64,000 nucleotides of DNA, taken from positions 1 through 64,000 of the IMG/VR virus record IMGVR_UViG_3300009155_000048; one strand, given 5' to 3'. The notes under the pieces were generated by a model. That model saw only the letters and a list, made by a program, of their open reading frames with translations, ran no database searches and was not told the DNA's origin. A program made the position numbers and the translations under genes. This stretch comes from a virus. This document shows, piece after piece, positions 139-62,337 of the stretch (position 1 is the first letter of the stretch; every line of letters starts with the position of its first letter).

Positions 139-672
139 ATGAAGAAATTCACAGATTTTAATAATTTCAAAAAGTTATATGAACAAGAAATTACACTTGG
201 TCAAACCACAAATACCGAGGAAACAACATCTACTCCTACACAAGAAGTAGAACAACTAACTGCACAAACCAAAACTGATGAAGTAACAAAATCAGAGCCA
301 GCTAAATTCCTTTCTAAATTATTAGAAAGTAGAGAAATAGCTCAAGTTTATCACTGGCAAGTAAAAGGTGATGAGGGTTCACACTCAGCTCACGTAGCTC
401 TTGCTGAGTACTATGACGAGATAATTGAACTTATTGACGAACTAGTCGAAGTTTATCAAGGACAATATGATCTAATTGATGAATATGATGTAATTGATAC
501 TAAAGAAACAAAAACTAAAGACAAAATTGAATACTTTCAAGAAGTAGTTCAATTTATTAAAGATACTAGATACAAAGCAATATTAGAAGAAGATACACAT
601 TTACAAAATACAATTGATGAAGTAGTTTCAACTATTTATAGATTGTTATACAAATTAAGATTCAATAGATAA
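139..672 (+). CDS. Dps/ferritin-like four-helix-bundle protein (DUF5856-like) with N-terminal capsid-targeting-like peptide
   Basis: HWQVKG...H.AL.EYYD.I.E.ID.L.E motif resembling the Dps ferroxidase region. Confidence 0.7.
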   Translation: MKKFTDFNNFKKLYEQEITLGQTTNTEETTSTPTQEVEQLTAQTKTDEVTKSEPAKFLSKLLESREIAQVYHWQVKGDEGSHSAHVALAEYYDEIIELIDELVEVYQGQYDLIDEYDVIDTKETKTKDKIEYFQEVVQFIKDTRYKAILEEDTHLQNTIDEVVSTIYRLLYKLRFNR

Positions 673-738: not shown

Positions 739-1212
739 TTACTTTAGAAGAGTGTCTATTTTTACATCACGTAAATATGACACTCTTTCTCTTTTGTATG
801 TATCTATAGCATTTCCCCAATTTGGATTTATAGAAGGACTTGCACTATTTAAAGTTAATTGATCATAATATAATCTTAATAAATTACTACCTTCTATAAT
901 TAAATCCTCACCATGTAAATCCATTTGTTGTAAAAATTGACCAGTAGCATTATAAACCACAACAACAACTGAAAACATATCTCTTTTACAACCCTTTAAA
1001 TTATAGTCAAAGAAAACATCATCATATTGAATCTCAATATACTTTTTTTGTGGAGTAGGACCATACATTCTTTTTGACTCTTTATAAGAACTAGTGTTTA
1101 CTTCTTCTTTAAGATTCATATCAATAATAGAATCATCTTCTATTACCATAAAATATGGTTCACTAAAAAGATAAACTTCATAGTAATATTCTGATCTTGG
1201 CTTACTTTGCAT
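739..1212 (-). CDS. Degenerate tail-tube (gp19)-like protein with C-terminal RDVKIDTLLK tail
   Basis: YKESKRMYG.P and G.K.D...VVVYNATG segments resemble jumbo-phage tail tube proteins (from memory); shared tail motif. Confidence 0.45.
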   Translation of the reverse strand: MQSKPRSEYYYEVYLFSEPYFMVIEDDSIIDMNLKEEVNTSSYKESKRMYGPTPQKKYIEIQYDDVFFDYNLKGCKRDMFSVVVVVYNATGQFLQQMDLHGEDLIIEGSNLLRLYYDQLTLNSASPSINPNWGNAIDTYKRERVSYLRDVKIDTLLK

Positions 1213-1408
1213 TTTCTAAAACCTTTTTAATTTTCTTAGACCTTCTTTGTTGTTTGGTTTCTAAGATACCATATCTACTTTTAAGAACACTTTTGGGATT
1301 GAAATTTGAGTCTATTACAATAGGCTCGGATTCTTTAATAATATATGGAGCCCAAACATATCCAGGTTCAATACCTTTTCCTTTTTTACCAATTAAAACT
1401 CTATCCAT
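1202..1408 (-). CDS. Mini-protein: C-terminal fragment of major capsid protein plus basic tail
   Basis: 17/49 ungapped identities to MCP segment NRIVIGRK...RSRYAVAE encoded in this window. Confidence 0.8.
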   Translation of the reverse strand: MDRVLIGKKGKGIEPGYVWAPYIIKESEPIVIDSNFNPKSVLKSRYGILETKQQRRSKKIKKVLENAK

Positions 1409-1429: not shown

Positions 1430-1738
1430 TTAGTAAAGATACTTTCTACCACTCTCATTATAATCTTTGAGATTATTAACGGTTGTATCTAAAAGTGATA
1501 AAGTATCTGATATTTTAGAATTAATAGATTCTAAGCTAGCTACTGAATCATCAATCTGGTCGTTAGACTTTTTAGATTTACTTCTAAAGTTAGATAATTC
1601 ATTTGTTAAAGATATAATCTCTTCTTTTTTAGCATCAATTGTTGATGATATGTTAGCTAACTGATTAATAATTTCAGAAACTCTATCATTTGAGATATCT
1701 ACGGTTTCATCTGCTTCAAAGAATTTTCTAATCTTCAT
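1430..1738 (-). CDS. Coiled-coil hypothetical protein with capsid-targeting-like N-terminus
   Basis: MKIRKFFEA start; heptad pattern. Confidence 0.6.
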   Translation of the reverse strand: MKIRKFFEADETVDISNDRVSEIINQLANISSTIDAKKEEIISLTNELSNFRSKSKKSNDQIDDSVASLESINSKISDTLSLLDTTVNNLKDYNESGRKYLY

Positions 1739-1777
1739 AATTAAGGTTTAATTTTTAATATATAGTATATATAAAAT

Positions 1778-2458
1778 ATGAAACGCAACAAACTAATATT
1801 AGAATTTACTGAGTTCAATGCTCAAAGAATGAATCCAGATTCAGCACAAATGGCTGTACAAGTTGATAATCCACAATTATCAGTCAATGCTTTTGATAGA
1901 CATGAAGACGCAATTAGAGCTGGTGTTTCTAGAATTAATAATATCTTGCATTCTTTATCAAATAGTGCTTCATTTAGAACATTGAAATCTAAATTTGCCT
2001 TAGAAGAACAAAAAATTACATCATTAAAAGTACTTAGAATTGTAAGTGCTGATGATGTTAACTATGATATTTATGTTAGTTTTGTAATTGATGATGAAGA
2101 ATATTTTGGTGTTATTGAAAATATTTTAACAAATGATACCATATTCAAATCTGAAGTATTTAAAGACTTTGACTTAGTTCAAAGTAAAGAATGGATTATC
2201 AGAACAAAGGGATTAATTATTAAAACACTTAAAAAGTGGTTACAACCCGAAGAAGGAAAATATACCTTAATTAATGATTATATCATTTGTTACTCAGTTG
2301 ATACCGGTAGAATGGTTCGTTTAGAAAAGGGAACTAAAGTAGAATTAGTAAGAGCATATGATAATAAGATTGTTATAAAATATAACAATGATTATTATAA
2401 CTTAGTTAATAATAATTTTATCTATTTTAATTATTGGTTTGAGAAGGTGATAATTTGA
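1778..2458 (+). CDS. Hypothetical protein (possible virion protein)
   Basis: 226-aa ORF downstream of TAATATATA motif; ILEFTEFN N-terminus. Confidence 0.6.
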   Translation: MKRNKLILEFTEFNAQRMNPDSAQMAVQVDNPQLSVNAFDRHEDAIRAGVSRINNILHSLSNSASFRTLKSKFALEEQKITSLKVLRIVSADDVNYDIYVSFVIDDEEYFGVIENILTNDTIFKSEVFKDFDLVQSKEWIIRTKGLIIKTLKKWLQPEEGKYTLINDYIICYSVDTGRMVRLEKGTKVELVRAYDNKIVIKYNNDYYNLVNNNFIYFNYWFEKVII

Positions 2459-6781: not shown

Positions 6782-6810
6782 AAAATCCTCAAATTTCTTT
6801 GAGGATTCTT
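6781..6810. terminator. Bidirectional intrinsic terminator-like hairpin
   Basis: AATCCTCAAA-tttc-TTTGAGGATT between convergent genes. Confidence 0.65.
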
Positions 6811-6944
6811 TCTATCTTCCACTTTCTACTTTTAATTTTCCACTTAGTGAACTCTTTACTATAAATTTGTTCATCATAGATTCGACCACCGTGTGTTTTT
6901 TGATTAAACTGAACAATCACACCTTCAAGGATATATCTATCCAT
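6789..6944 (-). CDS. Unannotated 51-aa mini-protein: N-terminal fragment of prohead protease plus SRKWKIERILKEI tail
   Basis: MDRYILEGVIVQFNQKTHGGRIY... has 9/21 identities to gp21 DYILGGIFTEFGVKNRNERIY; TAATG coupling to upstream gene. Confidence 0.75.
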   Translation of the reverse strand: MDRYILEGVIVQFNQKTHGGRIYDEQIYSKEFTKWKIKSRKWKIERILKEI

Positions 6945-34875: not shown

Positions 34876-35309
34876 ATAGATATAGAAGGATTGATTTTAT
34901 CAACTCTTTTTTCATGCCTACCACCCTCAAATTCCGTGTCTAAAAATACCTCTACTATTCCAATTGCTTCTTCAATTGAAATAAATCTAGCAGGTAAACA
35001 CAAAACATTAGCATTATTATGTTGTCTAGCTAGTGAAGCAATCTCACTATTCCAACAAAGAGCAGCTCTAATATCTCTCCATTTATTCGCAGTCATACAA
35101 ATACCATTTCCGGTACCACAGATTAGAATACCAATAACAGATTCTTCATCTAAAATTGAAGCAGTAACAGCATGTGCATAATCTGGATAATCTACACTTT
35201 CAGTAGATTCAGGTCCAAAATCAATTACAGGGACTCCTTGTTCGGAAATCCAATTAATTAAGGCTTCTTTCATTTCATAACCAGCATGGTCAGATCCAAT
35301 TGCAATCAT
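34872..35309 (-). CDS. rpiB: Ribose-5-phosphate isomerase B
   Basis: GSDHAG, VDYPD, CGTGNG, ARQHNNANVL, FEGGRH. Confidence 0.95.
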   Translation of the reverse strand: MIAIGSDHAGYEMKEALINWISEQGVPVIDFGPESTESVDYPDYAHAVTASILDEESVIGILICGTGNGICMTANKWRDIRAALCWNSEIASLARQHNNANVLCLPARFISIEEAIGIVEVFLDTEFEGGRHEKRVDKINPSISI

Positions 35310-36004
35310 AATAATTCATCTAATTTTCTATCTCTATTAATTTGGACATATTTAGCATTATATTCATTCACATAGTGAAGATTAATAAAGTTATTTTTAT
35401 TTAAAACAATTTGATAATTTAATTGTGATATAAATTTCGGCCCACTCAACGAAGTGGTGTTAATATTTGAAGCCACCGGTTCATCAATTTCATAATTATA
35501 ATTAAATGAGTCTTCTTTACCACAAATGATTGTCTTATCATCCCATCGCTTGAAAGCATCTATATAAACAGATATACCTCCAATTTCACCTAATTTATAA
35601 AAAGTATTACTATTACTTACCTTATTTATAGATTCATTGTGGAATAAAACAGATTCTTGAGCAAACATTCCAATTTGAGATGAACAAATGATAAAATCAA
35701 AGTTATTTTCTTTTAGATAATGATAGAGTACACCCATACCATCCGATTCGGATAAATTCATAACATCTAAGAATTCCTCTGATGTAGATTTCATTTCCTT
35801 AAATATTTCTTTATGAAATGATTGAGACAATTCTTGTATCAATAAAGAATTATATTTCGCATCAATATCTAATTTTAGATTAAATGCGTTTTGAAGTGAT
35901 ACCATTTCATCTCTAGTGATAGACATAGATACTTGTATTTTCTGTGATACCGGGAGTCTTTTATCCAACACTCCTAATTTTAATAATTCTGAATTAATTT
36001 GCAT
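35306..36004 (-). CDS. Truncated major-capsid paralog (C-terminal half) with RDRKLDELL tail
   Basis: SLLIQELSQSFHKEI and YKLGEIGGISVYID align to MCP SILVNELSQTISKQI and YPVGQIGDIQIYVD. Confidence 0.75.
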   Translation of the reverse strand: MQINSELLKLGVLDKRLPVSQKIQVSMSITRDEMVSLQNAFNLKLDIDAKYNSLLIQELSQSFHKEIFKEMKSTSEEFLDVMNLSESDGMGVLYHYLKENNFDFIICSSQIGMFAQESVLFHNESINKVSNSNTFYKLGEIGGISVYIDAFKRWDDKTIICGKEDSFNYNYEIDEPVASNINTTSLSGPKFISQLNYQIVLNKNNFINLHYVNEYNAKYVQINRDRKLDELL

Positions 36005-42243: not shown

Positions 42244-43554
42244 ATGTCTAAACTAATGAAACTTAACGAAATTCAAGACGAGTCTGTATTAAATGATATC
42301 TTTAATAATGAGATAATAATATTTGAAGATATACAAGGTAGTAAAATATATGTAAACTGGAATGGTTCCAATTTTACAATTAAATCAAAATCATTATCAT
42401 CGGATCCTATCAATATGATTGATTTAGCTATGCAAAATTATTATAATAATGCTATTAGTTTTTTTAATAATCTTGATAACAGAGTTAAAGGATTGATTAA
42501 TAAAAAATGGTGGTTTTGTTTTGAATTTTTCCCAGATAATCAACCAGCAAATATTGAATACAATAGAGTTCCTAAAAATAATTTAGTCTTAACTTCTATC
42601 TACAAAGGTAACAAATTTGATTATACCATTGATGAATTAGAAGAATATGCTAGATTACTTGATGTTGATGTAATTCCGGTAATTTTCAAAGGCAAACTAA
42701 ATGAAAAAGTTATAGAAGCAATTAAATATTTCTTAAACACAAGTGAGTCAGACTTAGAATATGTATTTGGCGAGAAGTCATTTTCTTACTTCTTCTATAA
42801 AATATTAAGTCCACAAACTCAAAATTCATTTTTGATGAATGAAGACTTTCAAAAAAATGTTGAGAAGTTAATAATAAGAATTGATGGTAAAGATGTATCA
42901 TTTGAAATTTTGAATCCATTATATAAAAGAATATCGGACACAAACTCAACAGACTTTGTTGAAATTTACACACTTATATTAGTTAATTTCTTGAATTTCT
43001 GTCAATCAATAGACTTTAATCAAATTAAAGTAAAGGGAAATAAAAGAGATGAAGTTTATATCTATTTAATTTGTAAGTTATTCAATATGTACTTATCGGA
43101 AGTAAAAGATGATATTGCTAATTTTCAATTTACTGTACCCGAATTCTTTGATAAAGATAAATTTAGAATTAACACAGAGTTGATTCCAAATAAAATGACT
43201 AAACAATTCATTTCAGAGGATAAAAAGTTTGAATATATTTTCAAAGTAATTTTAGGTAGTTTCAATAAGAAGAGAAAGAAACCAATTGGCGTATTCACAG
43301 AAGGAACAATTAACATATTTAACAATTTTGTACAAATGATACAAGAAAAAATTGATGAATTCTTTAACAAAAAAAGTGAGATTGAATTAACCAGAAGTGG
43401 ACTAATTGACTTCTCACAATGGTTTGATGTTAAATATGATGTGGATGCGGAAGAAAATGTTTATCCAGATGTATATACCGAATTAGAAAAAGGTAAGGAA
43501 AAAGATAAAAAAGGAACAAAGGGTGGAAAGTTTGGAGAATATGAAAAGAAATAA
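42244..43554 (+). CDS. RNA-ligase (Rnl2)-like fold protein lacking the motif I lysine
   Basis: FEDIQGS (motif I-like), FCFEFF, LLDVDVIPVIFKG, VEKLIIR. Confidence 0.55.
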   Translation: MSKLMKLNEIQDESVLNDIFNNEIIIFEDIQGSKIYVNWNGSNFTIKSKSLSSDPINMIDLAMQNYYNNAISFFNNLDNRVKGLINKKWWFCFEFFPDNQPANIEYNRVPKNNLVLTSIYKGNKFDYTIDELEEYARLLDVDVIPVIFKGKLNEKVIEAIKYFLNTSESDLEYVFGEKSFSYFFYKILSPQTQNSFLMNEDFQKNVEKLIIRIDGKDVSFEILNPLYKRISDTNSTDFVEIYTLILVNFLNFCQSIDFNQIKVKGNKRDEVYIYLICKLFNMYLSEVKDDIANFQFTVPEFFDKDKFRINTELIPNKMTKQFISEDKKFEYIFKVILGSFNKKRKKPIGVFTEGTINIFNNFVQMIQEKIDEFFNKKSEIELTRSGLIDFSQWFDVKYDVDAEENVYPDVYTELEKGKEKDKKGTKGGKFGEYEKK

Positions 43555-43714
43555 TATAGGTGGAGTATTTAAGGTTAATGCAACGGTAACAAAAACTATG
43601 ATTGAAGACTTAGAGAAACAACACGGGATTGATTTAGTCCAAAGATTGGAGAGTTTACTTGTTTTATTAACAGTTAGAAGACACCGAATTGAAAAAATAT
43701 TATCTAAAATTTAA
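43541..43714 (+). CDS. Mini-protein: major-capsid spine-helix fragment plus RRHRIEKILSKI tail
   Basis: 13/32 ungapped identities to MCP IEVSSALRRTEIEDIKANTGMDIVQKMESILV. Confidence 0.78.
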   Translation: MKRNNIGGVFKVNATVTKTMIEDLEKQHGIDLVQRLESLLVLLTVRRHRIEKILSKI

Positions 43715-49806: not shown

Positions 49807-50601
49807 ATGCCAGAGATTTCGGAAGTTAGAATAATGTCTGATTTTATTAATCAGAATTCCAAGAACAAATTTAATAAAGCCTTTCACGTTGAAAAAGGAA
49901 ATATTCCTACACAATTCCTTGATAAAGAATTTGATATAAAATCTGATTCTAGAGGAAAAGAACTATTACTATTCATTGATGATTTACCTATTCATGTCTT
50001 TATGGGAATGAGTGGCAATTGGAAATATACTCCAACTGAAAAATGGAATGAAACTAAATTCACTAGGCTTAGACTAGATGACGAAACCGGACACTCACTA
50101 TTATTATATGGTGGGTTTATGGGACCAAAATACTCGGTTGGTAAACCATTCACCGGAACCAAAAGAGGACCAGATCCAACTAAAGAGTTTGATGATTTCA
50201 AATCAAATATCTATAAGAATATAGACAATAAAGCTTTTGATAAACCTATCTGCGAAACTTTACTTAATCAAGAGTATTTTAATGGAATTGGCAACTATAT
50301 CAGAAGCACCTTAATATTCTATGCTGATGTGAATCCATTTGAAAAAGCAAGAACTATATTACAAAATTCTGATAGAGTACTTAATTTATGTAAGGATGTT
50401 CCTCTTAAATCTTATGAATTGAACGGTGGGCAACTCAAAGATTGGAAATCACCATTTGATACCGACTCTACTGAATTTAAGAAATGGGTATTTTATCAAA
50501 AGGGATTGGCTTGTACCGATAAAACCGGTAGAACATTCTGGTTTGATGAGAAATGGAAGGACTATTGTCCATATGAAATTAAGAAAAAACGTGGAAAATA
50601 A
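49807..50601 (+). CDS. Fpg/Nei-family DNA glycosylase; probable start ATG 49807
   Basis: MPE N-terminus, RGKEL, GMSG, GPDP, LLNQEYFNGIGNY (H2TH). Confidence 0.88.
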   Translation: MPEISEVRIMSDFINQNSKNKFNKAFHVEKGNIPTQFLDKEFDIKSDSRGKELLLFIDDLPIHVFMGMSGNWKYTPTEKWNETKFTRLRLDDETGHSLLLYGGFMGPKYSVGKPFTGTKRGPDPTKEFDDFKSNIYKNIDNKAFDKPICETLLNQEYFNGIGNYIRSTLIFYADVNPFEKARTILQNSDRVLNLCKDVPLKSYELNGGQLKDWKSPFDTDSTEFKKWVFYQKGLACTDKTGRTFWFDEKWKDYCPYEIKKKRGK

Positions 50602-51061
50602 CTTTATTTATAGTGATAGAGGTGAGGGTAAAACTGAATTTATAACAAGATTAGCCAATGATTTATATAGAAAAGGTGGTTATAAAATAGATTTTTATTC
50701 ACTAACATCAGAGAGTTTACCGAATTTAGAAAGAGGAATTTCATATGATATTTACCCAAATAATATTGTAAATAGAAATTACATTTTAGACCTCAAAAAA
50801 GAAAAGATAAAAGCAGGTAAACTAGATATTCTTTTCATAGATGATATAGATTACTTAGATAATTGGGATGATATATTATCACTAAATTGTGATAAATTTA
50901 TCACTGTTGATATATTGGAAGAAAGAAATTACCCAAAAAGAAGCTGTAATATGGTAAAATTAAAAGGAAACTATAATCTTTTTCACTTACCTGATATAGA
51001 ATATAATAGCTTCTTAAAACCTTATTTAAGAGAGAAAAAATTAGACATATTATTAAAATGA
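50591..51061 (+). CDS. Small P-loop (helicase-like) protein with LREKKLDILLK tail; probable start GTG 50591
   Basis: SDRGEGKT Walker A, LFIDD Walker B; tail motif. Confidence 0.65.
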   Translation: MENNFIYSDRGEGKTEFITRLANDLYRKGGYKIDFYSLTSESLPNLERGISYDIYPNNIVNRNYILDLKKEKIKAGKLDILFIDDIDYLDNWDDILSLNCDKFITVDILEERNYPKRSCNMVKLKGNYNLFHLPDIEYNSFLKPYLREKKLDILLK

Positions 51062-52344: not shown

Positions 52345-54096
52345 TTAGTTAAGTAATCCAGGAGTATCAGACACTTTAATTGTCATATACTGCTTTTGAG
52401 GATACCAACCCACTTCAGCAACTGCGTATCTAGATCTTAACAACATACGTGGAGCGAATGTAGCTTCAGAGATGATACTGATTGACTGAGCCATTAAGTA
52501 AGGTACGAAGATGATACCTGGTTGATCAGGATTGTTCTTTCTACCAATAACGATACGGTTATCGTTATACTTCATGTAAGGGTCAACATAGATTTGGATA
52601 TCACCGATTTGACCAACTGGATACAATTGACCAGAACCGTTGATTTTAGATTTAGTTGGATTAATAGTATATCCAGCGACATCCATTAAAGCTGCAGCTA
52701 AACCTCCGTTAGTTACTGCGAATTGTGCAGGACCAACACGACCTTCTGTTGCAATATAGTTAGAAGCGTGAACCATCTTAGTGATCAACTTACGTTGAAC
52801 AGCGTGTGTAGTTTCACCACCAACTTGAGTTTGAGTGTAAAGAGTATCTAAGTCAAAAATAGTTGGACTAGAGATGTTATTGCTATAAGTAGCACCAGAT
52901 GCTGGAGCTGAAGATCTGTTCAAGTCACCCATTTCAAAGATTTTAGATACAATTTGTTTAGAAATTGTTTGAGACAATTCGTTAACAAGGATAGATTCCA
53001 TTTTTTGAACGATATCCATACCAGTGTTAGCTTTGATGTCTTCAATTTCAGTTCTTCTAAGAGCTGAAGATACTTCAATAGTACCAACCGCGATAGACTT
53101 AGTAGAAACTTTTGGTCCAATTACACCAGCATAAGTCAAATCATCTTCAGCACGACTCATTGGGTATCTACCATTCTGAGAGTTTGTAGAGAAGTTTGTA
53201 GAGAAACCTGGTAATTGATCTTCTAATGCAGAAATCATAGTAACAGTTAAGTTAGAAGTACTTGAGAAAGTAAGACCAGGAATAGCTGTTAATTGAGACT
53301 GGATTGTAGCAGAAGGAGTAAATGTATTTTGAGTTTGGTCAAAAGCTGCTGCTGCTGGGTTATAAACGTTAGCAATTGTTTGTGAACCAATAGTAGCATT
53401 TGCTTGTCTAAATGCTCTGAAGATAGGAAGACCATCGATACGAGAGTAACCTAAGAATTCAAGAACGTTAGCTTTAGAACCACTAATAGATGTACCTGTT
53501 GAAACAGATGCAGCATAGTTACCTAAAGTAAAGTAAGCCTTAGTACCAGTAGCACTTTGGAAACCACCAACTGTTAAAACGATATCAGTTGAAGAAATTG
53601 CAGTTGAAACTTTAGTACCAAACGCACCACTTTGTAACATACCAGCTGTATCAGTTGAGTTAGTTGATACGATTTTAAATACTTGAGGTGCACCATATGT
53701 AGTATCAACATCATCATATTGGAAGTCAATATACAATAAGTCTAATTTTGGACCTGGTGAAGGTTTTACAGCAACTAAATCTAAACCGATTGTTTGAGCT
53801 GCGATTTTCATAGCAACTGGTAATAAGTTTTGACCTAAGTCACCAGAACCAGCCGAACCTGAGTTACTTGACCAGTTAGTACCAAGTGTAGTACCTGATA
53901 AAGTTGATGGTTGAGGAGATGTAACTGCACCCATACCTTGGATTGTTGCGTTTACATACGCATTTTCATTGATAGAGTGGAACTCTGCGTATTCTGACAT
54001 CCAATCAAGTCTGTCTTCACCAGCAACGCCCATGTTCTCTAATACTGGAGACCACTTCTTCAATGCTTTTTGTTTGTCTATTCTAATGTGTGACAT
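52345..54096 (-). CDS. Major capsid protein (T4 gp23-like)
   Basis: KKWSPVLE, IAAQTIGLDLVAVKP, VDPY, PY...F.PRMLLRSRY; follows protease gene. Confidence 0.92.
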   Translation of the reverse strand: MSHIRIDKQKALKKWSPVLENMGVAGEDRLDWMSEYAEFHSINENAYVNATIQGMGAVTSPQPSTLSGTTLGTNWSSNSGSAGSGDLGQNLLPVAMKIAAQTIGLDLVAVKPSPGPKLDLLYIDFQYDDVDTTYGAPQVFKIVSTNSTDTAGMLQSGAFGTKVSTAISSTDIVLTVGGFQSATGTKAYFTLGNYAASVSTGTSISGSKANVLEFLGYSRIDGLPIFRAFRQANATIGSQTIANVYNPAAAAFDQTQNTFTPSATIQSQLTAIPGLTFSSTSNLTVTMISALEDQLPGFSTNFSTNSQNGRYPMSRAEDDLTYAGVIGPKVSTKSIAVGTIEVSSALRRTEIEDIKANTGMDIVQKMESILVNELSQTISKQIVSKIFEMGDLNRSSAPASGATYSNNISSPTIFDLDTLYTQTQVGGETTHAVQRKLITKMVHASNYIATEGRVGPAQFAVTNGGLAAALMDVAGYTINPTKSKINGSGQLYPVGQIGDIQIYVDPYMKYNDNRIVIGRKNNPDQPGIIFVPYLMAQSISIISEATFAPRMLLRSRYAVAEVGWYPQKQYMTIKVSDTPGLLN

Positions 54097-54130: not shown

Positions 54131-54184
54131 TATATAGTATCCTATTTTTCCTTAATTTTTCAAGGGTGGATTTTTTATAGATTA
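54131..54184 (-). promoter_or_regulatory. Promoter with CTATAAAAAATCC-N31-TATATA (major capsid gene)
   Basis: Exact 29-nt repeat with 11241-11269. Confidence 0.6.
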
Positions 54185-56293
54185 AAGATTTTTGAATCTC
54201 TCCATAATTGCAGTTACATCACCATCAGACAATTTGTCTTCTTGAATTAACGCATTATGTTCAACTAATTTTTTAGTTACAGATTCATTTTTCTTGAATG
54301 GTCTTGTTAACCAGAAATGTTCAACTTTTGATTCAGTTGTTAAGTCTGGGTACAATCTAGCTTGCGATAAGATAGACTTTTTAGAAGATTCATTCAATTG
54401 TGACCAGATTGGCTTAATGTTTTCAGGCATCAATCTAATCAATCTCTCTTCAAGAGATTCATTTTTAACAGATAACGCTTCTCCAATCATCTTTAACACA
54501 TCAGAACTAGTGAAATAACTCTTTTCGTTTATGTAAAGTTTTACTTGTTCTTGCTCCTCGTTTGTTAAGCTGTAATAGCTATCAACTTGGGACTTGTTTA
54601 AGAATTTTAAGAAATGTAAATCATTGGACTCAGAAACTTTACGTTTTTTAGCTTCTTCAATTAATTTATCAATTTGTTGAGATAATTCTGTATCAGAATT
54701 GCCTTCGAATTTAGATTCTTCTCCATAAGGATTTTCCTCTTCTTTTTCATGTGCCATTGGCATTCCCGGCATTCCTTCTTCTTCACCATATGTACCTTCT
54801 TCTGAAGCTACTAAGTGAGGCATACCTTCTTCTTCCTCTTCTTCATATGCCATTGGCATTCCTTCTTCTTCTGAAGCAATCATTTCAAATCCTACTTCTT
54901 CTAAAGTTGGGAATGAATTACCTTTACTTTCATTTAATTTATTACCATTTAATTTCTCAGCAATTAAACCCGCGTAAGAAACAGTTTTATCTAAGTTTTC
55001 AGCAATATACTCAGAGTAAGCGATGTTATCATCTAAGTGTTCAGCAATGTATTCAGAGTAAGCGATGTTACCTTCTACATGCTCAGCTAAATATTCAGAA
55101 TAAGCAATAGAGTTATCTACATGCTCAGCGATATACTCAGAGTAAGCAATATTCTTATCTAAGTTTTCAGCGATGTACTCAGAGTAAGCAATATTCTTAT
55201 CTAAGTTTTCAGCGATGTACTCAGAGTAAGCAATATTCTTATCTAAGTTCTCAGCTAAATATTCAGAATAAGTGATATTCTTATCAACATTCTCAGCTAA
55301 ATATTCAGAGTAAGAAATATTTTTGTCTAAGTTTTCAGCTAAGTACTCAGAATAAGTGATGTTCTTATCTAAGTTTTCAGCTAAGTATTCAGTGTAATTA
55401 ACAGCCTTTTCTAAGTTTTCAGCTAAATAATCATTGTGAGAGATCAACTTATCAGTAGTTGATTTCAATGATTTATTTTCATTAACCACAACTTGAACTT
55501 TTTCAGCTAAGTAATCTAAATACTTAACCATTTGAGAGTTAGTCTTATTAAGTTCTTCATAGTACTCAAGAAGTTGCTCTAATTTTTTCGGATTGATGTT
55601 ACCTGATTTAATAGCAGATTGTGCAGCTTTCTTAGTAGTAGCGATTTCATTAATCAAATACTTAGAATAGTCAGCTAATTGCTGTTTGGTAACGAAGTCA
55701 TTCTGGTTCATATTGAATAGTTCGTTTATTTTTGACTCATCGGACATTTCATATATCCTAAAGTTAGTTTTATTGGAAAACCCATATGATTCATTTATGG
55801 ATTTCATTCTAGCTGAAGCAAATCCTGGGTCAGCAACAATGTCGTAAGTAAACAATTTCTTTAAAGTAACAGTACCATCTGATTCAGTGATACCAGCAGC
55901 TCTTGAAGAAACGAATACAGGACAACCATCATCAACTAAAGATTTAGCTTCTTTACCCCAATAGGTATTCAATAATTTAATCTCACCCTCAACACGATTA
56001 GATTCTTTAACATAAGAAGCTTTTCTAATAATGTGTGAAGCGCGAGATAATGATGTATCAAATACATCTGGGTGATCGAATTCACCATAAACAACACCCA
56101 TATTTTGAATACGGTCATTAAGTTCTTCTAAACAAGGAATAAACTTATCTGCAGTGTAGATTCTTTCATTACGGTTTTTAACACCGAACTCAGTAAAAAT
56201 ACCACCTAAGATATAGTCTTTCTTGCCACCAGAAACTTGAACGCTCTCCTTTAATGGGTTTGAGTTGTTTTCAACGATTAAGATTGGTTTCAT
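54182..56293 (-). CDS. Prohead protease (gp21-like) fused to repeat scaffold/core protein
   Basis: KNRNERIY, GEFDHP, VSSRAAG, YDIVADPGF; then 14-aa repeats and acidic region. Confidence 0.9.
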   Translation of the reverse strand: MKPILIVENNSNPLKESVQVSGGKKDYILGGIFTEFGVKNRNERIYTADKFIPCLEELNDRIQNMGVVYGEFDHPDVFDTSLSRASHIIRKASYVKESNRVEGEIKLLNTYWGKEAKSLVDDGCPVFVSSRAAGITESDGTVTLKKLFTYDIVADPGFASARMKSINESYGFSNKTNFRIYEMSDESKINELFNMNQNDFVTKQQLADYSKYLINEIATTKKAAQSAIKSGNINPKKLEQLLEYYEELNKTNSQMVKYLDYLAEKVQVVVNENKSLKSTTDKLISHNDYLAENLEKAVNYTEYLAENLDKNITYSEYLAENLDKNISYSEYLAENVDKNITYSEYLAENLDKNIAYSEYIAENLDKNIAYSEYIAENLDKNIAYSEYIAEHVDNSIAYSEYLAEHVEGNIAYSEYIAEHLDDNIAYSEYIAENLDKTVSYAGLIAEKLNGNKLNESKGNSFPTLEEVGFEMIASEEEGMPMAYEEEEEEGMPHLVASEEGTYGEEEGMPGMPMAHEKEEENPYGEESKFEGNSDTELSQQIDKLIEEAKKRKVSESNDLHFLKFLNKSQVDSYYSLTNEEQEQVKLYINEKSYFTSSDVLKMIGEALSVKNESLEERLIRLMPENIKPIWSQLNESSKKSILSQARLYPDLTTESKVEHFWLTRPFKKNESVTKKLVEHNALIQEDKLSDGDVTAIMERFKNL
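54955..55440 (-). repeat. About 12 coding tandem repeats of 42 nt (YSEY[LI]AENLDKNIA)
   Basis: Directly visible in DNA and protein. Confidence 0.9.
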
Positions 56294-57287: not shown

Positions 57288-58994
57288 TTAGAATTCAAAT
57301 TCAGCACCTTCACCACCAGCTTCTCCGCCACCACCTTCACCACCCGGTTCTGGACCAGCCTCCGGAGTTGTTTGAGCTCCTCCTTCAGGGGCAGCTTGAG
57401 CACCACCTTCGGCACCAGGTTCACCACCTTCAGCACCAGCTTCAGCACCACCTTCTGGGCCAGCACCACCGCCTTTACCAGATTTAATCCAATAGGCTTT
57501 ATTTTCTTCTTTTTCTTCTGGTGTCAATTTCATAACTTTATCAATTAAATAATCAATATGGAAATATGGTTGGCCATCAGCAGTTTGAATTCCCAACATA
57601 GTGCCTAAAATACTAGCTCTCTTTTCAAAATTTGCCAACTTTTTCCACTCTTCAAATAATTGATTTGAATTAAAATTGATATCTACTTGGTTTAAGAATA
57701 TCTCATCATTTTTCAATTCTGGAAATTCCATACACATTTGTAATTTAAGTGGTTTAACAATTAATTCTTTATAGTTAGCTCTTAAACGGTTAATAAAGTT
57801 ATTAAATTTAACTTCATCTCTAGTCATCTCAGCCGCATCACTAAATACATTACCACCACCATTTTCTTTATCAAATCTTTGGAAAGGAATTTTAGATGCT
57901 CTTTTTAAGATATTAAAGAACCAAGTTAACATATCATTCTCATTTAAGTTGTGACCTTCCGGTGAGACTAATTCCATACCAGGTGTACCAGCATCTCCTT
58001 CTGGGAACCACACTTGTTTATTATATGGTAAATGTTTTCTACCATTTATAGTAACAGTACCCAATGTATCATCCCATTCAACTTCTTCCGAGTAATCAGC
58101 AATTAATTGACCAATTTGTTCTTCAGCACGTTGTCTAGGTAAACCTTTAATTGGAATAGTAAACTTTTGATAAACAGTAGCGTTGATAATATTGAACATA
58201 ATTTTAGTTTGTTCAAGAATCTTTAACTGATTATATGGTTTAATTAAACCCTCAAGATATGAAGTTTCAGAATAATCATTCTGTGTTGAATATGAAATAA
58301 ATACCAATTGAGAATCTAAGAAGATTCTTCTTAATTGTGGATCCTCTGGATATTGAATCCAAAGATTACCAATAGATGGCTCATATGCTGGAACTAATGT
58401 TTCGGGTCTTAGTCTATTAAAGTGAATAATATTTTTTTTCTTATCATCCCAAACAATTTCAATTGCAATATAACCATCAATTAAGAAGTCTTTCATCATA
58501 TTCCAAGCAGTGATATTATCACCAAATCCAAATCTATTATAAATAATTTCAAAATACTCTTGATACTTATCCTTAATATCTTGTGAGTAGTCATTTGATA
58601 AAGGTCTAGGTGAACAAAAATCATTCTCATTATAGATAATTGCCTCATCGGAAACCGATGAAACAAAATCTCTTAATTCATCCTTAATTGAATATTCTCT
58701 TAAAATTCTTCTCTTATCAGCATAACTTCTATCTAAATACGGAACCGACTTTCTATTAAGAACAGACGCAACCGCTTTGGATGAAAAGAAATCATACATC
58801 GAATTATTTTTCTGACTGTACGGATCCTCATTAATACCAACACCGACAGTGTTTCTGATAATCATATCATCATACTTCATACCGAAGTTTGATAAATTAC
58901 GAAGCAATCTATTAAAAAGACCCTTATTCTCAACCGCAGATGAGATATAAGTAGAATTTTGATTTTGTTGATTTAGCGGATTATAAGAAGCCAT
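57288..58994 (-). CDS. Portal protein (T4 gp20-like)
   Basis: SYLE..IKPYNQLKILE, ASKIPF.RF, EMTRDEVKF..FI.RLR; G/E/A/P-rich tail. Confidence 0.92.
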   Translation of the reverse strand: MASYNPLNQQNQNSTYISSAVENKGLFNRLLRNLSNFGMKYDDMIIRNTVGVGINEDPYSQKNNSMYDFFSSKAVASVLNRKSVPYLDRSYADKRRILREYSIKDELRDFVSSVSDEAIIYNENDFCSPRPLSNDYSQDIKDKYQEYFEIIYNRFGFGDNITAWNMMKDFLIDGYIAIEIVWDDKKKNIIHFNRLRPETLVPAYEPSIGNLWIQYPEDPQLRRIFLDSQLVFISYSTQNDYSETSYLEGLIKPYNQLKILEQTKIMFNIINATVYQKFTIPIKGLPRQRAEEQIGQLIADYSEEVEWDDTLGTVTINGRKHLPYNKQVWFPEGDAGTPGMELVSPEGHNLNENDMLTWFFNILKRASKIPFQRFDKENGGGNVFSDAAEMTRDEVKFNNFINRLRANYKELIVKPLKLQMCMEFPELKNDEIFLNQVDINFNSNQLFEEWKKLANFEKRASILGTMLGIQTADGQPYFHIDYLIDKVMKLTPEEKEENKAYWIKSGKGGGAGPEGGAEAGAEGGEPGAEGGAQAAPEGGAQTTPEAGPEPGGEGGGGEAGGEGAEFEF

Positions 58995-62155: not shown

Positions 62156-62187
62156 AGAAAAACCTCTCAAATTTGAGAGGTTTTTTT
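62156..62187. terminator. Bidirectional terminator
   Basis: AAAACCTCTCAA/TTGAGAGGTTTT. Confidence 0.75.
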
Positions 62188-62337
62188 AATTTTATTAAAT
62201 ATTTTATTTATTTTTCTAATTCTAACTTCTTGTTTTGTTTCATATTGAATACTAACTTTAGCATCAACAAAAGAAGGTTGTGATACAACATCTTGTATAA
62301 AGTCAGACCAATTATATTGTGCGAAGTTCTTGGACAT
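62167..62337 (-). CDS. Unannotated 56-aa mini-protein with ETKQEVRIRKINKIF tail
   Basis: TAATG-coupled to sigma gene; ETKQ..R..KI.K[IV] matches 1202-1408. Confidence 0.65.
   Translation of the reverse strand: MSKNFAQYNWSDFIQDVVSQPSFVDAKVSIQYETKQEVRIRKINKIFNKIKKTSQI

Follow-up and report, generated by a model that had tools for sequence, protein, structure and literature searches.

Why would a phage carry a short piece of its own major capsid protein (MCP) as a free-standing gene? The question is raised by a gene of 68 codons in the DNA analyzed here, a stretch of 64,000 nucleotides (the window) that forms positions 1 to 64,000 of the IMG/VR virus record IMGVR_UViG_3300009155_000048. The record is 107 kb long, with a non-coding share of only 5.5%, and its completeness is estimated at 19%, which implies a phage genome of about half a megabase. 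The G+C content of the window is about 29%, and the named phages closest to it are the uncultured huge phages LR745206 (635 kb), LR756502 (642 kb), and LR756501 (735 kb). An initial annotation described the gene as a copy of the C-terminal strand region of the MCP followed by a basic tail. In this study, we investigated the identity, conservation, and genomic context of this mini-gene and weighed what its product may do.

Results

The mini-gene lies at 1202-1408 on the minus strand, with an ATG start and a TAA stop at 1202-1204. The full-length Gp23-type MCP of 583 aa is encoded at 52345-54096 on the same strand (Pfam PF07068, E 1.8e-27). BLASTP aligned residues 2-50 of the mini-protein (1259-1405, minus strand) without gaps to residues 513-561 of the MCP (52414-52560, minus strand; approximately T4 gp23 434-479), with 17 of the 49 residues identical and 34 similar (E 3e-12). 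This reproduces exactly the match given in the initial annotation, and the distance of about 51 kb between the two segments was also confirmed. The Smith-Waterman score of the pair was 108, against 29.1 ± 4.4 for 2000 shuffles of the 68-aa protein, none of which reached 108; by these shuffling statistics the alignment is highly significant (z = 18). On its own, the 68-aa protein matched Pfam Gp23 (PF07068) with an E value of 9.2e-6 and 25.7 bits (cut-off 24.4), a match covering only positions 301-354 of the 376 in the profile, and it matched PHROG 138 (major head protein) with an E value of 7.6e-4. A profile of 45 members of the mini-protein family aligned to MCP 513-565 with an hhalign probability of 98.1% (E 8.7e-14). 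The basic tail ETKQQRRSKKIKKVLENAK, reported to follow the MCP-like part, is present at residues 51-68 (1205-1258, minus strand) and contains the motif R-x-x-K-I-x-x-V-L. An ORF on the opposite strand (1197-1433, plus) was also considered and is unsupported, since the homologs and Pfam matches are all in the minus frame.

The part homologous to the MCP amounts to about 49 residues out of its 583. The full HK97 fold consists of an N-arm, an E loop, a spine helix, and P and A domains, which 68 residues do not accommodate, and the mini-protein is not a capsid subunit. In an AlphaFold2 model of the mini-protein from a 45-row alignment, the MCP-like part was coil (pTM 0.27), and the sole confident element was a helix at residues 52-67 (block pLDDT 86-89). 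The earlier statement that the protein is too short for an HK97 fold is borne out both by the fraction of the MCP that it represents and by the lack of a stable fold in this part of the model. Because the excerpt alone was modeled as coil, it seems to need a partner for folding. A complex prediction with the mini-protein and MCP families gave a score of 0.00 in a run without controls and weighs neither way on binding; AlphaFold2 of the MCP, from a 9-row alignment, had a mean pLDDT of 42.7.

The protein database contained one cluster identical to the mini-protein and one that was 82% identical, as well as intact relatives of 68-69 aa at 64-82% identity; one database relative carried an in-frame deletion of one residue. 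A syntenic copy on another IMG/VR contig (L006:5001-5207) was 78% identical and was flanked by genes for a 102-aa coiled-coil protein and a 157-aa protein. The omega value (Nei-Gojobori) of this pair was 0.30, and two other pairs gave 0.39 and 0.49; these values are higher than those of the neighboring genes (0.06-0.16). The mini-gene is constrained yet fast-evolving. A profile from five members retrieved about 70 clusters of 59-85 aa, and an exhaustive profile search retrieved 551 representative clusters (50% identity) at E <= 1e-3, including 64 at E <= 1e-10. Among the best 150 of the 551 clusters, the majority were 56-90 aa long, with a profile match extending through the tail. One strong mini-gene and one full MCP each were found in the phage's own record, in LR756501, LR745206, and LR756502, and in two further IMG/VR contigs, G002 (436 kb, 95% complete) and G003. 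In Lak-C1 and Ralstonia phage RSP15, we found the MCP only and no mini-gene. The copies are intact at 30-80% identity across genomes that are otherwise rearranged in synteny, and the reading frame is kept in close and distant relatives alike. A 662-aa protein with nine matches (P0081) was a repetitive artefact, not a relative, and a search for related loci with P0021 gave no match. Databases label the family members as 'hypothetical' or, through Pfam, as Gp23, and our full-text literature searches found no description of such capsid-fragment mini-genes. These results indicate that the mini-gene is, with little doubt, a real gene under selection and belongs to a huge-phage mini-protein family not described before, in which a short amphipathic helix of cationic character has been joined to an MCP excerpt.

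The family retains residues that are invariant in the MCPs, namely G7, K9, G16, P21, Y22, S44, R45, and Y46, which correspond to MCP residues G517, K519, G526, P531, Y532, S554, R555, and Y556. Its most conserved stretch includes the basic K-S-R-Y strand, whereas the loop tip, highly conserved in MCPs, is variable among the mini-proteins. In a maximum-likelihood tree on 46 shared columns, one branch split 50 mini-protein pieces from 14 MCP pieces (support 95/91, 96% of bootstrap trees); the alignment is short and the deep branching is not resolved. The MCP tips were very short and the mini-protein tips long. Mini-proteins did not match the MCP of their own phage more closely than other MCPs (permutation p = 0.19). 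On the basis of this permutation result and the tree split, recent copying from, or co-evolution with, the phage's own MCP was rejected. The tree split, the missing closeness to the own MCP, and the synteny together fit one old duplication followed by fast divergence, and fit neither repeated recent copying nor gene conversion.

The location of the excerpt in the capsid protein was then read from T4 gp23. As a single sequence the MCP had no match among PDB sequences, and a profile search was required; a profile of nine MCPs matched the T4 gp23 structures (6UZC, 5VF3, and others) with an E value of 4e-13. The best PDB match of the mini-protein family was gp23 436-495 (E 0.013). Along the alignment, P21-Y22 of the mini-protein correspond to gp23 P452-Y453 and S44-R45-Y46 to T475-R476-Y477, and residues 26-30 face gp23 T457-G461, a mapping that depends on a distant profile alignment and not on a structure of the phage's own MCP. 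In T4, the gp23 mutations T457A, R460C, and G461S map to the P loops close to the quasi-threefold axes, and residues 486-502 form the A-P linker (PMC9546572). The quasi-threefold contact has a hydrophobic part, made by the P loops, and an electrostatic part, in which a short acidic P-domain helix faces a basic P-domain strand region (PMC9546572, PMC9958956). This helix bears a cluster of length mutations at residues 268/275/285/287 (PMC9546572, PMC9958956). The quasi-threefold contacts determine the length of the T4 capsid, which is altered by mutations there. From the gp23 alignment, the HK97 topology, and the positions in PMC9546572, the excerpt would comprise the last A-domain strand and a P-domain hairpin bearing the P loop and the basic K-S-R-Y strand, with the hairpin as its putative conformation. 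The description as a 'C-terminal strand region' therefore needs revision: by this alignment, the piece is the last A-domain strand together with the P-loop hairpin.

Further MCP pieces are present in the window. A second MCP-fragment mini-gene at 43523-43714 (plus strand) encodes 63 aa with the tail RRHRIEKIL. Its residues 14-47 match MCP 338-371 (14/34 identical, BLASTP E 1e-8), and the protein has a weak Pfam Gp23 match at profile positions 149-179. As judged from the alignment, this fragment is approximately gp23 263-296, that is, a strand, the short acidic P-domain helix with the length-mutation cluster, and the start of the spine helix. On the same alignments, each side of the quasi-threefold contact has a free-standing copy in the window. 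We found no ortholog of the 63-aa gene in five relatives, which makes it less widespread than the 68-aa gene. A truncated MCP paralog of 232 aa (35306-36004, minus strand), which ends in RDRKLDELL, matches MCP 340-521 (BLASTP E 3e-9); it has orthologs of 191-249 aa in G003, LR745206, and LR756501, two of which lie about 5 kb from the MCP. In addition, an ORF of 56 aa beside a gp55-like gene (62167-62337, minus strand) has a weak full-length match to the mini-protein (E 0.001) and the tail RIRKINKIF, and may be a degenerate second paralog.

The tail helix of the 68-aa protein has a single hydrophobic face (I60/V63/L64), and the remainder is rich in lysine and arginine. The motif [RK]xx[KR][ILV]xx[ILV][LFYI] occurred within the last 21 residues of 6 of the 111 genes of the 107-kb record, where 0.40 were expected. 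None of 1000 shuffles reached six C-terminal motifs, an excess of about 15-fold over shuffles, and the motif was not enriched internally in the record (9 observed, 6.5 expected). Such a C-terminal motif is found on at least six otherwise unrelated genes, including those at 739-1212, 6789-6944, and 50426-51061. The tail HMM also matched the 56-aa (62167-62337) and 63-aa (43523-43714) ORFs. This common tail points to a putative hub that would read one label on many small proteins. Residues 51-68 resembled MCP 8-21 (KQKALKKWSPVLEN) better than 99% of shuffles did. However, the tail HMM found nothing significant in six MCPs, and derivation from the MCP was rejected as the general origin of the tail. 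Comparison with T4 gp23 residues 26-42 was sub-threshold and not significant. A T4-type prohead-protease site, [LI]-x-E, was likewise rejected, since it fits some subfamilies (VLE, ILE) while others have KIE or none.

Several members of the family are built differently. Longer ones run on through the MCP linker and the last strand before the tail. P0174 and P0201 join an N-terminal P-domain strand (MCP 91-126) straight to the hairpin, and in P0174, P0199, P0201, and P0131 the MCP 'DLVxVQPM' strand region is fused to the C-terminal hairpin with the E loop, spine helix, and A domain omitted. P0073 and P0075 look circularly permuted, with the K-S-R-Y strand, then G-Y-V-W-V-P-Y-I, and then the tail, at borderline E values. 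The helix is C-terminal in most members, but L019:3001-3258, L025:2956-3255, P0071, P0093, P0114, P0118, and P0121 have a basic helix, for example RKRKINKIF, at the loop within the hairpin. Such differences in architecture suggest a pair of strands that work together and a helix that is added as a module. The idea that the helix stands in for the spine helix in a mini P domain was unsupported: the helix varies in position, and modeling gave no packed structure.

Members of the LR756501 group have an acidic D-P-Y-G-E-E-x-W motif after the tail, and an adjacent small ORF carries it too. At L001:3695-4240 (LR756501), two adjacent small ORFs of 101 and 78 aa both end in D-P-Y-G-E-E-x-W-x-N, and a gene for a LAGLIDADG-type endonuclease lies about 700 bp upstream. 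In P0180, this acidic motif is N-terminal. Three small neighboring ORFs in relatives were examined as MCP pieces and discarded: L025:2760-2966 and L017:3585-3737 had no significant match, and that of L001:3695-4000 was weak (E 0.019).

Upstream of the mini-gene, after a gap of 21 nt, lies a gene for a 102-aa coiled-coil protein that ends in GRKYLY (1430-1738, minus strand). The two genes are probably on one transcript, and the order of coiled-coil gene and mini-gene recurs in L006, L017, L022, L023, L024, and L025. Downstream, a 157-aa gene with the tail RDVKIDTLLK (739-1212, minus strand) overlaps the mini-gene by 11 nt. It had no Pfam or PHROG family match and is lineage-specific: L017, L022-L024, and L040 lack it, and there the mini-gene borders directly on the DUF5856 gene. 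Most often, the genes run from a fibre-like gene through a 226-aa gene on the opposite strand and a coiled-coil gene of about 101 aa, whose product ends in GRKYLY, to the mini-gene and then a convergent DUF5856 gene. In the window, the 226-aa gene (1778-2458, plus strand) is divergent from the coiled-coil gene, with which it has a common intergenic region. The DUF5856 protein (139-672, plus strand) matches PHROG 858 ('starvation-inducible transcriptional regulator') and is the convergent neighbor of the mini-gene in all relatives.

A promoter-like motif, AATATATA, is located at 1765-1772 (minus strand) in the intergenic region between the coiled-coil gene and the divergent 226-aa gene, 34 nt before the start of the coiled-coil gene, with further copies at 1758-1765 (plus strand) and upstream of 58994 and 56293. 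Of the 43 copies in the 107-kb record, 32 lie no more than 70 nt upstream of a start on the same strand. The motif is kept before the coiled-coil gene in the window phage and five relatives; the mini-gene has no copy of its own. It precedes the portal gene at 57288-58994, the prohead protease-scaffold gene, and a virion structural gene, and also homing-endonuclease genes. From this putative promoter motif, co-expression of the mini-gene with the head genes is plausible. The motif does not fix the timing, and late expression is not established because homing-endonuclease genes are preceded by it as well. The 703-aa protein encoded at 54182-56293 (minus strand) combines a T4 gp21-type prohead protease domain (PHROG 207, weak Pfam S77) with a long coiled-coil part, which is probably the scaffold.

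Discussion

What does a capsid excerpt that is no capsid subunit do? We tentatively favor the possibility that the mini-protein is an interface mimic that would bind the MCP and act on the capsid assembly of its own phage. Four observations lead us to this preference. The excerpt and the companion 63-aa fragment are two elements of the inter-capsomer contact; the family has retained the MCP-invariant residues; folding of the excerpt seems to depend on a partner; and the mini-gene is a fixed, single-copy gene in a region that shares a promoter motif with the head genes. The excerpt, unable to fold alone, would act on the phage's own capsid protein. In T4, the counterpart hairpin makes contact at the quasi-threefold axes with two elements of neighboring capsomers, the P loops and the short acidic P-domain helix, and the mini-protein may dock on that P-domain surface of free capsomers or of the growing procapsid. 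Such docking could delay or tune the capsomer-capsomer contacts and the lattice curvature in a very large shell; alternatively, the mini-protein could occupy unsatisfied P-domain sites. The tail would be a modular docking or address helix common to other small proteins.

Some results speak against an interface mimic. The mini-proteins show no signal of co-evolution with their own MCP (p = 0.19), and the partner 63-aa fragment is not conserved in five relatives. The variable loop tip is odd for a mimic of a hydrophobic P-loop contact, and the geometry of the helix relative to the hairpin is not fixed, because the helix is C-terminal in most members and inside the hairpin in some. A bolder extension is that, in huge phages of this clade, the tagged P-loop hairpin and acidic-helix excerpts regulate capsid geometry in trans, as soluble wedges or caps placed at quasi-threefold contacts that would help to set the curvature and size of the shell around a genome of about half a megabase. 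We regard this extension as unlikely as it stands.

The main rival to an interface mimic is a decoy against host immunity, which we consider doubtful. By displaying a conserved surface that the MCP exposes only prior to assembly, the mini-protein would sequester or mis-trigger a capsid sensor, and the tail would block or recruit something at the sensor. This would account for the fast evolution expected in an arms race (omega 0.3-0.5, long tips), for the retention of exactly the residues that are invariant in MCPs, and for the further MCP pieces with the same tail in the genome. Several defence proteins are triggered directly by capsid proteins, and a short peptide of gp23, Gol, activates the Lit protease; we know of no sensor that recognizes this P-loop hairpin. 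A capsid protein directly triggers CapRel (PMC9712102), and capsid proteins also trigger Avs7 and Dsr1 (bioRxiv 10.64898/2026.01.04.697583). However, the known sensors read whole folds or another region of gp23. The operon motif is common to head genes and not obviously early, and a single copy at a fixed syntenic place resembles a housekeeping morphogenetic accessory rather than a decoy.

The tail also raises the possibility of a head-internal or cargo protein, in which it serves as a loading signal and the mini-protein is packed in the capsid or lines its inner face with the basic helix on the DNA. A strongly basic tail, helical in the AlphaFold2 model and present as a C-terminal label on at least six unrelated genes, is consistent with such a role. 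On the other hand, the helix is internal in some members, and the capsid-hairpin body of the mini-protein is left unexplained, which makes this role improbable.

Still less probable is a weapon against competitors, a dominant-negative fragment that poisons Gp23-type assembly of co-infecting phages or satellites and is tolerated by the phage's own assembly. The excerpt matches all related MCPs about equally, its own not being the best, and it would target the interface that is best conserved in the fold. These phages hardly differ in their MCP C-termini, though, so that self equals non-self and the phage would poison itself, and no immunity partner is evident. Finally, huge phages do carry MCP paralogs, such as the 232-aa one at 35306-36004, and the omega of the mini-gene exceeds that of its neighbors, but the view that it is what a second capsid gene left behind after decay, without function and still open through chance or overlapping neighbors, has hardly any credibility and is largely refuted by 551 clusters with conserved start, length, and tail, by copies intact at 30-80% identity in rearranged genomes, by in-frame indels and omega below 1 in three pairs, and by the retained MCP-invariant residues.

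The significance of the mini-genes depends on which of these readings applies. They touch on an open question, the size control of very large HK97-fold capsids. If active in assembly, they would represent a new class of morphogenetic factor, in which a virus regulates its shell with excerpts of the shell protein, and would supply natural peptide tools for perturbing HK97-type assembly. A decoy role would make them the first capsid mimics encoded by a phage to target immunity that senses capsids. Whichever applies, the several hundred clusters of the family now go by no label other than 'hypothetical' or are mislabeled 'major capsid protein'. Of the two copies of capsid contact elements, the 68-aa gene is conserved across a large clade of uncultured phages, and the 63-aa gene is without an ortholog in five relatives.

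Among known systems, the closest in sequence are T4 gp23 and the vertex protein gp24 (PF07068; PDB 6UZC, 5VF3, 7VS5, and 1YUE), with clear homology at about gp23 434-479. In gp24, T4 offers a precedent for an MCP duplicate that gained a new capsid role. Unlike gp23 and gp24, the mini-protein retains a small part of the fold, about 49 of more than 450 residues; the spine helix, E loop, A-domain core, and insertion domain are all missing, and it cannot be a capsomer subunit. It also carries an extra cationic helix.

The Gol peptide of T4 gp23, which acts with the Lit protease and EF-Tu, is a precedent for a short stretch of gp23 acting alone as a ligand. In contrast to the mini-gene, Gol is encoded within the gp23 gene itself, in the N-terminal third of the protein, and its effect is to set off host defence instead of benefiting the phage. 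Cement or decoration proteins such as T4 Soc and lambda gpD are small and bind where the P domains of neighboring capsomers meet. They are comparable as small accessory proteins at threefold or quasi-threefold sites, a location that is putative for the mini-protein, but each folds independently, without relation to the MCP, and attaches to the outer face of the shell once it has matured and expanded. Encapsulin cargo-loading peptides and the T4 capsid-targeting sequence are short terminal labels read by an HK97-fold shell or a scaffold, and are a possible analogue of the tail as a label common to unrelated proteins. The tail differs from them in having no sequence similarity to them and in that the helix is internal in some members.

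The comparison that bears most directly on the capsid contact is with the T4 ptg mutation clusters at gp23 268-287 and 457-461 (PMC9546572, PMC9958956), which fall in the segments copied by the 63-aa and the 68-aa gene, respectively. In T4, these are point mutations in the capsid protein itself, whereas here the same segments appear as free-standing genes.
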